Assembly: GCA_946622645.1 (NCBI GenBank)
Contig: CAMOQF010000002.1
Span: forward strand, 190 to 64,189
DNA length: 64,000 nt
DNA from: an uncultured Blautia sp.
GTDB lineage: Bacteria > Bacillota > Clostridia > Lachnospirales > Lachnospiraceae
Direction of reading: 5' to 3'
The notes beneath the pieces were generated by a model. It made no database searches and was not told the DNA's origin. It saw nothing but the letters and a program-made list of their open reading frames with translations. Positions 32,902 to 60,990 of the stretch are shown piece by piece. The position numbers and the translations under genes were made by a program. Position 1 is the first letter of the stretch; each line of letters opens with the position of its first letter.

Positions 32902-32995
32902 TCACGAAGGATCACGAAAGATCGCGAAGACTCACGAAGTTTCACGAATTTCCAGGATCACTCACGATTTTTCCACGAAGATTCACGAGAAAAAA
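32902..32995 (+). repeat. 10-bp-phased array of TCACGAA-like motifs upstream of the sigma factor gene
   Basis: TCACGAA at 32902, 32912, 32932, 32942; TCGCGAA 32922; TCACGAT 32962; CCACGAA 32973; TCACGAG 32983. Confidence 0.9.
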
Positions 32996-33017
32996 CAGGA
33001 AAAGTTTCTGACAGTTC

Positions 33018-33046
33018 CATACAAAATAAAACGTCTCCTGTATAAT
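33018..33046 (+). promoter_or_regulatory. Putative sigma-A promoter with perfect -10 and weak -35
   Basis: TATAAT at 33041-33046; the hexamer 17 bp upstream is CATACA (poor -35). Confidence 0.5.
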
Positions 33047-33148: not shown

Positions 33149-33751
33149 ATGAGAACAGATCGTCTGCCGGAGCCGCTCTCCAGGCAGCAGGAAGAGGGAC
33201 TGCTGTTCCTGATGCGGAAGAAGGGGAGTCGGGCAGCCCGGGAAAAACTGATCATCCATAATCTTCGCCTGGTCTATGCCATAGCCTGGGAATACGCCGG
33301 GATCCTTGAACTGGAAGACCTGGTTTCCTGCGGCGTCATCGGCCTGATCAAAGCGGTGGATGCGTACGATGGTTCCCGGAAGGCAGGGCTCGGAAGCTTT
33401 GCCGCGCGCTGCATCCGGAACGAGATCATCTCGGAGCTTCGCAGGATGAAAAGAAACGAGAGAGAAACGCTGGAGGCGATCACGCCGGAGCAGGAGATGA
33501 CGCTCTGGTCTCTGCACAGACATGAGCTGGATCCCCAGAGCATGATCGAAAGATCCGAAGAAAGAGAGGCGCTGTACAAAGCGCTGAAACATCTGGGGAG
33601 AGAGGACCGGCAGCTGCTGAAAAAGCGTTATCTTTCCGCTCAGAAGTGTTCTCAGCAGAAACTGGCGGAACAGACCGGACTTCATCAGTCCAGCATCGCC
33701 CGTCGGGAGATGCGTATTCTCGAAACGCTTCGCAGGCAGCTGCCTTCCTGA
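33149..33751 (+). CDS. Orphan sigma-E/sigma-K-like RNA polymerase sigma factor without pro-sequence
   Basis: LPEPLS, HNLRLVYAIA, EDLVSCGVIGLIKAVD, FAARCIRNEI, SQQKLAEQTGLHQSSIARRE match the sporulation sigE pattern; ATG 33149 follows GGAGG/AGGAG. Confidence 0.85.
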   Translation: MRTDRLPEPLSRQQEEGLLFLMRKKGSRAAREKLIIHNLRLVYAIAWEYAGILELEDLVSCGVIGLIKAVDAYDGSRKAGLGSFAARCIRNEIISELRRMKRNERETLEAITPEQEMTLWSLHRHELDPQSMIERSEEREALYKALKHLGREDRQLLKKRYLSAQKCSQQKLAEQTGLHQSSIARREMRILETLRRQLPS

Positions 33752-57978: not shown

Positions 57979-58411
57979 AAAGATTCTGGAACTGATCAGG
58001 ACAGAAGCGATCGAGACACAGGAGGAGCTTGCCAACCGTCTGAACGAGGCAGGCTTCCACGTCACGCAGGCCACGGTCTCACGGGATATCCGCGCCCTGA
58101 AGCTTACCAAGATGACCCGGAAGGACGGCCGTTCTTACTATGCCGTCCTGGAGGAGAACAATCCGGTGACGGGAGACAAATACACCCGCGTGATCCGCGA
58201 GGCGCTCGTCTCCATGGACGCGGCCGAAAACCTGGTGGTCATCAAGACCGTCTCCGGCATGGCCATGGCGGTGGCGGCCTCTCTGGACTCCATGAAATGG
58301 GAGGAGCTTCTGGGATGCATTGCGGGGGACGACACCATCATGTGCGCTGCCCGTACGGCGGAAGGCGCCCGCACAGTGATCGATAAGCTGGATGCCCTCC
58401 TGCACGCATAA
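57959..58411 (+). CDS. argR: Arginine repressor
   Basis: TQEEL, TQATVSRDI, GCIAGDDT; GTG start. Confidence 0.96.
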   Translation: MKPQRHKKILELIRTEAIETQEELANRLNEAGFHVTQATVSRDIRALKLTKMTRKDGRSYYAVLEENNPVTGDKYTRVIREALVSMDAAENLVVIKTVSGMAMAVAASLDSMKWEELLGCIAGDDTIMCAARTAEGARTVIDKLDALLHA

Positions 58412-58424
58412 TTGGGAGAATAAA

Positions 58425-60101
58425 ATGCTGGTAAATCTGCACGTAAAAAACCTTGCGCTGATCGAAGAGGCGGAGGTGAACTTCGGCCCCGGCCTCAACA
58501 TCCTGACGGGGGAGACCGGCGCGGGCAAATCCATACTTCTGGGCTCCATGCAGCTGATCCTGGGCGGAAAGATCCAAAAGAACATGGTTCGGACAAACGC
58601 CCCGTACGCGCTGGTGGAGCTCCTTTTTGAAACGGAAGACGAACAGACGCTCCGGAATCTGGCAGAGCTTTCTGTCTTTCCCGAAGACGGCCAGATCCTG
58701 CTGTCCCGTCGCATCACCGACGGACGCAGCGTGAGCCGCATCAACGGAGAGACCTGTACCATCAGTCAGATGAAGGCGGCGGCTGCCTGCCTGCTGGATA
58801 TCCACGGACAGCATGAACATCAGTCTCTTCTGTACCGGGACAAGCAGCTGGAGATCCTGGACGCTTTCGCGTCTGACAAGACACGCCCCCTGTTGGAAAA
58901 GGTCAGGACCGCCTTCGCTGCCGTGAAGCAGTGTGAGAAAAATCTGCAGGAGCTGGATATCGATGAAGAACAGCGTTCCCGCGAGATCTCTTTCCTGGAG
59001 TACGAGATTCATGAGATCGAAAAAGCGGCTCTGGTCCCCGGCGAGGACGAAGAGCTGGAAAAACGGTACAAAAAGCTTTCCAACAGCCGCCGCATGATGG
59101 AGACCTTGTCCTCTGTCCACGCGCTTACAGGCTCCGACAGGGGGGCGGGAGAACAGACCGGACAGGCGGTACAGGAGCTTGGACATATTCTGCAGTACGA
59201 TGATGAACTGCAGCCGCTGAGCGACCTTCTGATGCAGGCGGACAGCCTTCTGTCGGACTTCGCGCGGGAGCTTTCTTCCTACATGGACGATCTTGTCTTC
59301 GACGAGGAGGTCTTCTACGAGACCGAAAAACGTCTGGATCTGATCAATGATCTGAAAGCCCGCTTTGGAAAGACCATCGAAGAGATCCTGGAGGGAAGGG
59401 ACCGCAGGTCGGAAAGGCTCTCGGCCCTGCAGGACCATGCCTCCCGGGTGGAAAAGGCCAGACGTAAGCTTGCGGAAGCGGAGGCTTCCTACGCGGAGGC
59501 GGCCGGGCTTCTCTCCGAAGAGCGGCAGAAGGCATCGCGGGAACTGATCCTGCAGGTCGTCGAATCGCTGCAGGACCTGAACTTCCTGGACGTACGTTTT
59601 GACATCCGCTTTGACAAAAAAGCGCCTGCCTCCAACGGAACGGATGAGATCGAATATCTGATATCCGTCAATCCCGGCGAGGAGATCCGTCCTCTGGGAC
59701 AGATCGTTTCGGGCGGAGAGCTTTCCCGGATCATGCTGGCGCTGAAGGCCATCCTGGCCTCCCGGGATCAGATCGGGACTCTGATCTTCGACGAGATAGA
59801 CGCCGGCATCAGCGGTCGTACGGCGCAGAAGGTATCGGTCAAGCTTTCTCAGATCGCACAGACCCGGCAGGTGCTCTGCATCACCCATCTGCCGCAGATC
59901 GCGGCGATGGCGGACCGGCACTTTGAGATCGAAAAACACGGGGACGAGGAAAACGGGACTGCGACGGAGGTCCATCTTCTGACAGAAGAAGACACCATCC
60001 GCGAGCTTGCGCGCCTTCTGGGGACCGACGATATCACAGACGTGGCGATCCGGAACGCGGCCGAAATGCGCAGGTCCGCCCTGGAACAAAAAGGGCGGTA
60101 G
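58425..60101 (+). CDS. recN: DNA repair protein RecN
   Basis: LTGETGAGKS, IHGQHEHQ, SGGELSRIMLA, FDEIDAG, ITHLPQIAA. Confidence 0.98.
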   Translation: MLVNLHVKNLALIEEAEVNFGPGLNILTGETGAGKSILLGSMQLILGGKIQKNMVRTNAPYALVELLFETEDEQTLRNLAELSVFPEDGQILLSRRITDGRSVSRINGETCTISQMKAAAACLLDIHGQHEHQSLLYRDKQLEILDAFASDKTRPLLEKVRTAFAAVKQCEKNLQELDIDEEQRSREISFLEYEIHEIEKAALVPGEDEELEKRYKKLSNSRRMMETLSSVHALTGSDRGAGEQTGQAVQELGHILQYDDELQPLSDLLMQADSLLSDFARELSSYMDDLVFDEEVFYETEKRLDLINDLKARFGKTIEEILEGRDRRSERLSALQDHASRVEKARRKLAEAEASYAEAAGLLSEERQKASRELILQVVESLQDLNFLDVRFDIRFDKKAPASNGTDEIEYLISVNPGEEIRPLGQIVSGGELSRIMLALKAILASRDQIGTLIFDEIDAGISGRTAQKVSVKLSQIAQTRQVLCITHLPQIAAMADRHFEIEKHGDEENGTATEVHLLTEEDTIRELARLLGTDDITDVAIRNAAEMRRSALEQKGR

Positions 60102-60185
60102 AGCGGCTTTCCGGACTGTCACGAATCCCTTGTACTGCGCGCATTTCGTAAGAAAACACACCGGTGGATTTCACGAAAATTCACG

Positions 60186-60218
60186 AGAAAAAAAGAGGCT
60201 TCCGGGCCTCTTTTTTCT
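60186..60218. terminator. Bidirectional rho-independent terminator after recN
   Basis: AGAAAAAAAGAGGC-TTCCGG-GCCTCTTTTTTCT. Confidence 0.75.
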
Positions 60219-60351
60219 TGCATTCTGTCATGAACGGTGCTAACAATGGATGCAGGGAGCGGCTTCTTTGGAAGGGAAAGACGCACGCTTCTTACGAGGC
60301 CTCGTATCGACAAAATCAACTGGTTCACGTATGACAGGAGGGGAGTTTCAT

Positions 60352-60990
60352 ATGAATAAGATCAATGTCGCTGTCGTCTCCGGACGGGAGCTGAAACCTG
60401 ATGACCTGCTGCTCCGGATGATCCGGGAGGACGGCTCGCTCTACTATGTGGGCACCGTTTCCAATGAGGATGAAGTGAAAAACCTGATGGAGCTCGATCC
60501 GCCCGACATGCTTCTGTTTTCTTCCATCGTACCGAAACTCTGGCGGCGCGACGGACGGCTGTTTTCCAGCGCGCAGAATCTGACCGGGACCCGCTACAGC
60601 ATCCCGGGGAGCGCGCTTCCGCTCCGCGAAGAAAACCTGGAGCTGATCGTCAGCAACATCCTGCACGAGCTGGGGGTGCCCACCCACATCAGCGGTTTCG
60701 GTTTTATCCGCGACGCCGTGATCCTGGCCGTCTATGACCAGGGGCAGCTGGGAAAGATCACGAAGGTCATGTATCCCACCATCGCAAAGAAGAACATGAC
60801 GACGCCCAGCAAGGTGGAACGGGCCATCCGCCATGCCATCGATCTGGCGTGGGAGAGAGGGAGCCTCAAGTATATCGACGAACTCTTCGGAAGCGATCTG
60901 CGGGACAAACGCATCAAACCTACCAATTCGGAATTCATCGCTTTGATCGCGGATAAGATCCGGATGGACTGGAAAAACAGGAAATATTAA
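60352..60990 (+). CDS. spo0A: Spo0A homolog with intact DNA-binding domain and degenerate, truncated receiver
   Basis: C-terminal LHELGVPTHISG, ITKVMYPTIAK, TTPSKVERAIRHAI and KPTNSEFIALIADK are Spo0A_C signatures; located at the canonical position after recN; 212 aa. Confidence 0.9.
   Translation: MNKINVAVVSGRELKPDDLLLRMIREDGSLYYVGTVSNEDEVKNLMELDPPDMLLFSSIVPKLWRRDGRLFSSAQNLTGTRYSIPGSALPLREENLELIVSNILHELGVPTHISGFGFIRDAVILAVYDQGQLGKITKVMYPTIAKKNMTTPSKVERAIRHAIDLAWERGSLKYIDELFGSDLRDKRIKPTNSEFIALIADKIRMDWKNRKY

Follow-up and report, generated by a model that had tools for sequence, protein, structure and literature searches.

Autoregulation of Spo0A through 0A boxes is textbook knowledge. A cluster of ACGA-core motifs upstream of a spo0A homolog in an uncultured Blautia sp. 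raises the question of whether boxes spelled differently from TGTCGAA can form such an operator, and of which protein would read them. The initial annotation had proposed autoregulatory operators both upstream and downstream of a putative promoter, as at Bacillus spo0A. We examined this proposal in the window, by which we mean the whole stretch of 64 kb (64,000 nucleotides) that was analysed, in the complete assembly of 2.52 Mb, over which the whole-assembly motif counts were made, and in related genomes.

The motif cluster in the recN-spo0A gap

The motifs occupy the 250-bp gap between recN (58392-60101) and the spo0A homolog (60352-60990), within the gene order dxs-tlyA-nadK-argR-recN-spo0A-glgA-recA-recX. 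Each of the elements from which the proposal had been built is present (7 of 7), as are the promoter hexamers, and the gap and the gene behind it are organised as follows, with distances counted from a predicted start site near 60254.

60119-60125, + strand: box O1, TCACGAA, centred at about -132
60145-60151, - strand: box O2, TTACGAA (TTCGTAA on the + strand), inverted, centred at about -106
60171-60177, + strand: box O3, TCACGAA, in the ancestral box-1 slot of the genus-wide spo0A promoter, centred at about -80
60181-60187, + strand: box O4, TCACGAG, in the ancestral box-2 slot, centred at about -70
60189-60216, + strand: intrinsic terminator of recN, AAAAAAGAGGC, loop TTCCGG, GCCTCTTTTTT, between the boxes and the -35
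60218-60223, + strand: -35 hexamer TTGCAT, aligning to the genus consensus CTTGATT
60242-60247, + strand: -10 hexamer AACAAT, after an 18-nt spacer, aligning to the TATAAT of relatives
60248-60313, + strand: start of a conserved leader, its first 66 nt, of which 64 are identical in the sister lineage L055
60293-60306, no strand assigned: perfect 14-bp palindrome TACGAGGCCTCGTA (halves TACGAGG and CCTCGTA), centred at about +46
60306-60312, - strand: canonical-type 0A box TGTCGAT (ATCGACA on the + strand), extended TTTTGTCGAT, centred at about +55
60325-60331, + strand: TCACGTA, probably a chance match
60352-60990, + strand: 212-aa spo0A homolog, whose receiver is a truncated, non-phosphorylatable stub and whose Spo0A_C domain is intact

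The density of the motif is a property of this gap and not of its surroundings: over the full window TYACGAR is not enriched (24 seen against 28 expected), and genome-wide it occurs 720 times in 2.52 Mb, or 0.072 times per 250 bp. The region upstream of spo0A holds 5 per 250 bp, against the 0.07 expected genome-wide (Poisson P(>=5) of 1.5e-8 for one 250-bp window and about 1.5e-4 for the genome as a whole), and the enrichment also holds against DNA without long open frames, the kind of background that had been suggested for comparison, where the frequency is 0.107 per 250 bp. At least three copies per 250 bp are reached at only three loci of the genome, namely the gap between aroD and a sigma gene (6), the spo0A gap (5) and contig C36 (4). 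Perfect TCACGA-N4-TCACGA pairs with a 10-bp period are confined to the sigma and spo0A loci; pairs with one mismatch number about 10 elsewhere, and about 11 are expected by chance.

In spelling, the upstream boxes lack the TGTCGAA or TGNCGAA core, agreeing with TGTCGAA at 5 of 7 positions at best: they share T1, C4, G5 and A6 with it, but have C or T for G2 and A for T3. No box at the locus departs from the C4-G5-A6 core. In arrangement, O3 and O4 are separated by 3 bp and start 47 and 37 bp upstream of the -35, and the same tandem head-to-tail layout, with a 3-bp spacer and a 10-bp period, is found in this pair at 60171 and 60181 and in a nine-unit array at the sigma gene.

Conservation of the boxes, the promoter and the leader

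The regions upstream of spo0A were taken from about 30 genomes belonging to this GTDB genus and aligned with the CTTG of the -35 as anchor. For about 22 species the alignment is gap-free, in the order box 1 (7 nt), 3 nt, box 2 (7 nt), 30 nt, TTGATT, 18 nt, TATAAT, and the distances in the window match those of the genus (37 bp from box 2 to the -35, 18 nt from the -35 to the -10). The slots 37 and 47 bp before the -35 hold 0A boxes of accepted type in relatives: in the box-1 slot several species have TGTCGAA, many others nCTCGAA, and the looser box-2 slot reads GGACGAA, AATCGAA or TATCGTA across species, and TCACGAA in G001, a genome with a full-length Spo0A and spoIVA. Since the same slots recur at the same distances in about 22 species of the genus, we identify the tandem pair as the spo0A promoter's ancestral operator. 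Relatives with a short Spo0A carry three to four phased boxes upstream of spo0A (TGTCGAAtttTGTCGAAtttTCTCGAA in G111, GCTCGAAaaaCCTCGAAaaaTCTCGAAaaaGCTCGAA in G137). The proposal that the upstream sites are 0A-derived operators of spo0A is thus substantiated for O3 and O4, whose slots hold 0A boxes in about 22 species, and the proposed promoter (TTGCAT at 60218, -10 at 60242) is confirmed by its gap-free match to the genus-wide TTGATT-18-TATAAT.

The search for promoters comprised the alignment, in which one conserved sigma-A-like promoter is seen, and a consensus promoter scan, which returned no promoter-like site in the recN-spo0A gap. In genus members with a full-length Spo0A (L003-L023) the -35 is embedded in TTTCGGCTTGATTTCGC, that is, in two reverse TTTCG elements 11 bp apart that flank it; the window, which reads TTTTTTCTTGCATTCTG, has no CG in either.

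The terminator of recN fills the 30-nt spacer between box and -35 in the window and its nearest relatives, and is kept in L031, L037, L038 and L055. It is a GC-rich hairpin with a U run directly after the gene: its arms, 60189-60199 and 60206-60216, are 11 nt each and 100% complementary, a T run follows, and the fold has a dG of -14.8 kcal/mol (z -2.4). A simple terminator scan missed this hairpin, probably because its T run pairs with the A run. An Rfam search of 59900-60500 (E <= 1) gave two chance-level sRNA matches and no known RNA family.

At a finer scale, L055 aligns along the entire recN-spo0A gap and separates the boxes from the DNA between them. The stretch from recN to the terminator is 63% identical overall, the four boxes being identical at 23 of 28 positions and the inter-box DNA at 31 of 58 (about 53%; Fisher p = 0.016), and no indel has altered the spacing of any of the four boxes. 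O1 and O2 can accordingly be counted among the operators that had been proposed, their exact spacing having been kept while the surrounding DNA diverged. In L055, O1 and O3 read TTACGAA and O2 reads TCGCGAA on the box strand, with its CGAA core kept; all three direct boxes are TTACGA- where the window has TCACGA-. Together the two lineages give T-Y-A-C-G-A-R, the very consensus the initial annotation had drawn from the window.

Conservation is strongest over the promoter and the beginning of the leader. The promoter stretch 60218-60247 is identical at 29 of 30 positions in L055, and the block 60218-60313 as a whole is 97% identical, far above the neutral expectation given by the dS of 0.28 in the adjacent gene. 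The leader part of this block, 60248-60313, is non-coding, since a 1-nt deletion in L055 breaks the open frame at 60250.

The operators proposed downstream of the promoter fared unevenly. The TGTCGAT box, flanked by TTTT, is conserved in L055 within the 97%-identical block; no other site of the region comes as close to the canonical form, and it is the sole box of canonical type there. Its pattern TTTGTCGA[AT] occurs 86 times in the genome, so that about 0.004 copies are expected per 105-nt leader, and it resembles a conserved TTCGACAAAATC box at a prepilin-peptidase promoter. Because it is both rare by chance and conserved, we regard it as a plausible candidate for a downstream operator. TCACGTA has to be dropped: it lies in the 22 nt after the conserved leader block, which are only 59% identical to L055, and is lost there. 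The palindrome at 60293 is unchanged in L055 but is probably not a Spo0A site, because the version found in relatives is unlike their own box type: L031, L037 and L038 carry another 14-bp palindrome centred on GGCC, GAAGCGGCCGCTTC (halves GAAGCGG and CCGCTTC), at a comparable place in the leader. Perfect 14-bp palindromes number 323 in the genome, and GGCC is the centre of 19, which makes the one in the window only mildly unusual by itself.

The short Spo0A and related arrays in the genome

The spo0A homolog matches the Pfam model Spo0A_C at 124.8 bits and gives no match to Response_reg, and TIGR02875 covers its C-terminal part alone. Aligned to a normal Spo0A, the 212-aa protein keeps the first part of the receiver and has lost the acidic pocket and the phospho-acceptor Asp. 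It is 99% identical between L055 and the window at a dS of 0.28 (dN/dS 0.03), and purifying selection acts strongly on the short Spo0A, its DNA-binding domain included. Its recognition helix, SKVERAIRHAI, retains the core VERAIRHAI, and together with the domain score and the dN/dS this speaks for a functional DNA-binding domain. Among the matches listed, 117 of 120 homologs have SRVERAIRHAI, the exceptions being P0001 (SKVERSIRHAI) and P0002 (TRVERGIRHAI), both of the 212-aa short form, and P0005 (SKVERAIRHAI), a 126-aa fragment from the lineage of the window. The window protein thus has Lys in place of the near-invariant Arg211, a backbone contact according to a paper citing the crystal structure (PMC13577027), and the sister lineages have Ser or Gly at position 215. 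The orthologs of the short gene (L031:3001, L037:921, L038:367, L055:661) start with TTG or GTG, the window copy at 60352 alone with ATG, and all share the strong Shine-Dalgarno sequence GGAGGGGAG. A metagenome scan for further short-Spo0A loci yielded only one G137 duplicate and one canonical Spo0A.

The genomes with a short Spo0A lack spoIVA, and their SpoIIE matches are weak and of PP2C type only; the lineage is therefore asporogenous. Both spoIVA and spoIIE are present in two genus members with a full-length Spo0A. Those homologs that bear a name are Blautia-like.

A sister locus of the spo0A cluster lies in the same window, as follows.

32902-32989, + strand: nine-unit, 10-bp-phased array of TCACGAA type, upstream of a SigE/K-like sigma gene (33149-33751)

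The sigma gene scores 114 bits against the SigK and SigE models, below their cut-offs, encodes no pro-sequence and has no spoIIGA partner. L093 keeps the array gap-free and unit for unit, degenerate units included, at a dS of 0.4-0.6 in the adjacent genes. The positional orthologs in short-Spo0A genomes combine direct boxes of canonical or nCTCGAA type, arrayed distally, with a reverse pair, TTCGACAnnnTTCGACA, that stands proximally, exactly 21 nt upstream of TATAAT, and overlaps the -35 region; the window has only TCACGAA-type boxes in its distal array, and no CG cores are left in its proximal pair. In the region 32902-33046, which takes in the array, the proximal TTCGACA pair of the relatives has decayed to TTCTGACAGTTCCATACA, yet that stretch is near-invariant between the window and L093.

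A concerted co-evolution of protein and DNA, in which the C2-to-T change in the direct boxes of L055 would go with A215S in its Spo0A helix, was considered and downgraded, because the sigma array of L093, which is probably from the same population as L055, is still TCACGAA. At the DNA level the L093 sigma gene agrees to 99% with L056, and L055 and L056 stem from a single run. As L093 retains TCACGAA, box position 2 is simply Y.

Two box types coexist in the genome, canonical TGTCGAA arrays (contigs C10, C83 and C7) and the TCACGAA type at spo0A and the sigma gene. On C10 (33821-33867), TGTCGAA, TGTCGGA, TGTCGAA and TGTCGAA stand in 10-bp phase before a prepilin-peptidase-like gene at the contig end. 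The canonical boxes of this promoter, with a conserved TTCGACAnnnnCTCCTATGGA, recur in G137, G111 and G004 and more loosely in G006 and G002, which makes it a likely genus-wide target of Spo0A unrelated to sporulation. On the AT-rich contig C83 (1346-1535), TTCGACAtcaTTCGACA lies 18 nt before TATAAA, followed by a 33-codon ORF or small RNA and a strong terminator; about 800 bp from it (501-545), a phased TCACGAA-GTACGAA-TTTCGAA precedes a gene for a secreted protein. On C7 (22480-22550), a tandem TGTCGAAaacTGTCGAT adjoins the DnaA-box-like TGTGGATAA just downstream of dnaA in an origin-type region, an arrangement reminiscent of the 0A boxes near the origin of replication in Bacillus (mentioned in PMC2731898). 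Two further clusters of CGAA-core boxes are candidate regulon members: TTACGAA, TCACGAA and TTCGACA are mixed in a divergent gap between secreted-protein and DUF21/CBS-type genes (C36:16941-17080), and the second cluster lies past the ppdK terminator, before a gene for an ABC substrate-binding protein (C37:3640-3700).

The genome also encodes a second protein with this domain, a Spo0A_C-only paralog of about 114 aa (contig C22:23454-23795; Spo0A_C 74.8 bits). It is present (C22, L059-L069, L077-L092) in 11 of 11 genomes searched, sporogenous or not, and in further genus members. Its helix is VENNIRT here; most genomes have EH[DN]IRT, and four short-Spo0A genomes EQNIR[TF], which gives E-[HQN]-[DN]-I-R-[TF] as against E-R-A-I-R-H in Spo0A. 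The position of Spo0A Arg214 is thereby occupied mostly by H, by Q in the four short-Spo0A genomes, and by N in this genome only. Across 20 genomes, the paralog helix and the box spelling show no correlation.

Readings of the operator and known systems

The clustering of the motifs, their positional homology to 0A boxes, their conservation and the promoter are established by the counts and alignments above. To describe the cluster as a respelled 0A operator (TGTCGAA to TYACGAR) at the ancestral spo0A promoter of an asporogenous lineage appears well founded on this comparative ground. From here on, which protein binds, in which direction it regulates and how the affinities rank are matters of inference. 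The reading we prefer, with a confidence somewhat above even, is that the TYACGAR elements descend from 0A boxes, are probably of low affinity and bind the receiver-truncated Spo0A, which would thereby regulate its own gene. It is favoured by the presence of this box type at a sigE-like gene as well, since such genes are a classic kind of Spo0A target. The four TYACGAR copies would constitute the operator of a weak spo0A promoter of sigma-A type, to which the truncated Spo0A would probably bind, most likely as head-to-tail oligomers, and Spo0A bound at about -70 to -132 would stimulate its own promoter. The affinity per site would be below that of canonical boxes because G is missing at box position 2. 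The nine-unit array of the same box type would drive the SigE/K-like sigma gene, and the two loci may make up a small Spo0A-to-sigma circuit retained after the loss of sporulation. At about +55, the canonical-type box may add negative feedback, the palindrome beside it presumably being a separate conserved element. There would then be two affinity classes for the same Spo0A, strong canonical boxes and weak, cooperative TYACGAR boxes with a high threshold.

Published binding data bear on this reading in both directions. Spo0A contacts G2, C4 and G5 of TGTCGAA, and each single change, G2A included, costs about 10-fold in affinity (PMC3485338); the boxes of the window are without G2, one of these three base contacts, which speaks against Spo0A as the binder. 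Spo0A dimers also footprint tandem boxes 3 bp apart, including imperfect ones with up to 3 mismatches (PMC2731898). A further point against this reading is the uniformity of the variant spelling, which is unlike the outcome of a random weakening of sites. Canonical arrays are, moreover, maintained in the same genome, where a second Spo0A_C protein could read one of the two types. The main rival reading, a real alternative though an unlikely one, is that the Spo0A_C-only paralog, or another regulator, reads TYACGAR while Spo0A keeps TGTCGAA, with the paralog controlling spo0A and the sigma gene or competing there with Spo0A. Such a division would account for two box types in arrays of the same style within one genome, and the paralog has a full Spo0A_C domain, is universal among the genomes searched and differs in its helix at the position of Arg214. 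Yet the boxes occupy slots that hold canonical 0A boxes in relatives, the C-G-A core contacted by Spo0A is invariant in every box, the helix variants do not track the box spelling across species, and no TYACGAR box lies upstream of the paralog gene itself. Among other regulators, sites of ArgR, CodY, LexA and PhoP type were considered by eye, and none explains 10-bp-phased CGAA arrays that are conserved genus-wide; the pair in the window matches a CodY box at 11 of 15 positions, but the match is lost in relatives. A further proposition, that the operator code has been rewritten, either through a relaxed or shifted reading of positions 2-3 by Spo0A or through a repertoire split between Spo0A (TGTCGAA) and the paralog (TYACGAR), we consider a minority possibility; a full change of specificity is unlikely because canonical TGTCGAA arrays persist elsewhere in the genome. 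If the split were true, a two-reader system would control spo0A and a sigE-like sigma factor without pro-sequence.

The boxes might also have no reader at all, being decaying 0A relics or phased, A-rich DNA of curved or UP-like character at a constitutive promoter. The absence of spoIVA and spoIIE from the lineage would agree with decay, as would the loss, at both promoters, of the proximal CG-core boxes that relatives have around the -35, and runs of A4-A7 do stand in 10-bp phase behind the boxes at spo0A and in G137. We nonetheless hold this to be very improbable: decay predicts random divergence, yet 6 of 7 positions per direct box are kept over a dS of 0.28-0.57 while the spacers change, and spo0A itself is under strong purifying selection. 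As for A-tracts, those at spo0A are A4 and A7, and the sigma array has none of 4 or more (CGAAGG, CGAAAG, CGAAGA), yet it retains TCACGAA. It is quite improbable, too, that the main control lies in the palindrome and its adjoining boxes, as the operator of a dimeric repressor or as a 5'-UTR hairpin, with the upstream boxes secondary. The near-identity of 60218-60313 to L055 (97%) would suit this, as would the occurrence of GGCC-centred 14-bp palindromes, of which the genome has 19, at similar leader positions in two lineages. As an RNA hairpin, however, the palindrome is weak (-3.6 kcal/mol, z -0.8), and a consistent leader hairpin was not found across the genus, where the best ones are weak and inconsistently placed. 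A consensus fold of four leaders reaches -7.3 kcal/mol with little covariation, and its alternative alignment sets the palindrome of the relatives against a non-palindromic segment of the window, not against the palindrome there.

Here the module survives in Lachnospiraceae without spoIVA, spoIIE or a phospho-acceptor in Spo0A, and the spelling of its operator has changed at two promoters, canonical boxes having been kept at others. The lineage offers a natural system in which to follow the drift of the sites and recognition helix of a master regulator after sporulation loss, and the role of a phosphorylation-independent Spo0A in non-sporulating commensals. It also comes with a testable operator map (four upstream boxes, the promoter, a downstream box), and the genus-wide promoter architecture can guide the annotation of spo0A control in Blautia-like genomes.

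Among known systems, the spoIIG promoter of B. subtilis, which serves pro-sigma-E, is activated by Spo0A~P. The sigma promoter of the relatives resembles it, with 0A-type boxes before a sigE-like gene and the proximal reverse pair described above; the window differs in that its proximal pair is without CG cores, a distal nine-unit variant array is left, and pro-sequence and spoIIGA are missing. The 7+3+7 layout of the tandem pair is that of abrB and of the Spo0A-DNA crystal 1LQ1. It is also the head-to-tail layout of the promoters of phages phi29 and Nf, where imperfect boxes with 1-3 mismatches were footprinted (PMC2731898); here neither box of the pair is canonical, the mismatches lying at positions 2 and 3, and no consensus box stands beside them. 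In B. subtilis, spo0A is transcribed from the promoters Pv and Ps and autoregulated via the boxes 0A1-0A4 around them (PMC12090719). The likeness to Bacillus on which the initial annotation had drawn is a loose one: multiple boxes surround the gene's own promoter in both, some upstream (in Bacillus, of the sporulation promoter) and at least one downstream of a promoter or over it, but in place of the pair of Pv (sigma-A) and Ps (sigma-H) we find one visible sigma-A-like promoter and TYACGAR boxes. The regulator differs as well, in an organism without spoIVA and spoIIE; since it has no phospho-acceptor, any feedback cannot depend on a phosphorelay. In C. difficile, Spo0A binds upstream of spo0A and sigH, and its DNA-binding domain alone binds unphosphorylated (PMC3485338). 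The box there is a perfect TGTCGAA and the receiver is complete, and its place, about 75 bp upstream of spo0A (PMC3485338), is a point of likeness to the locus described here.
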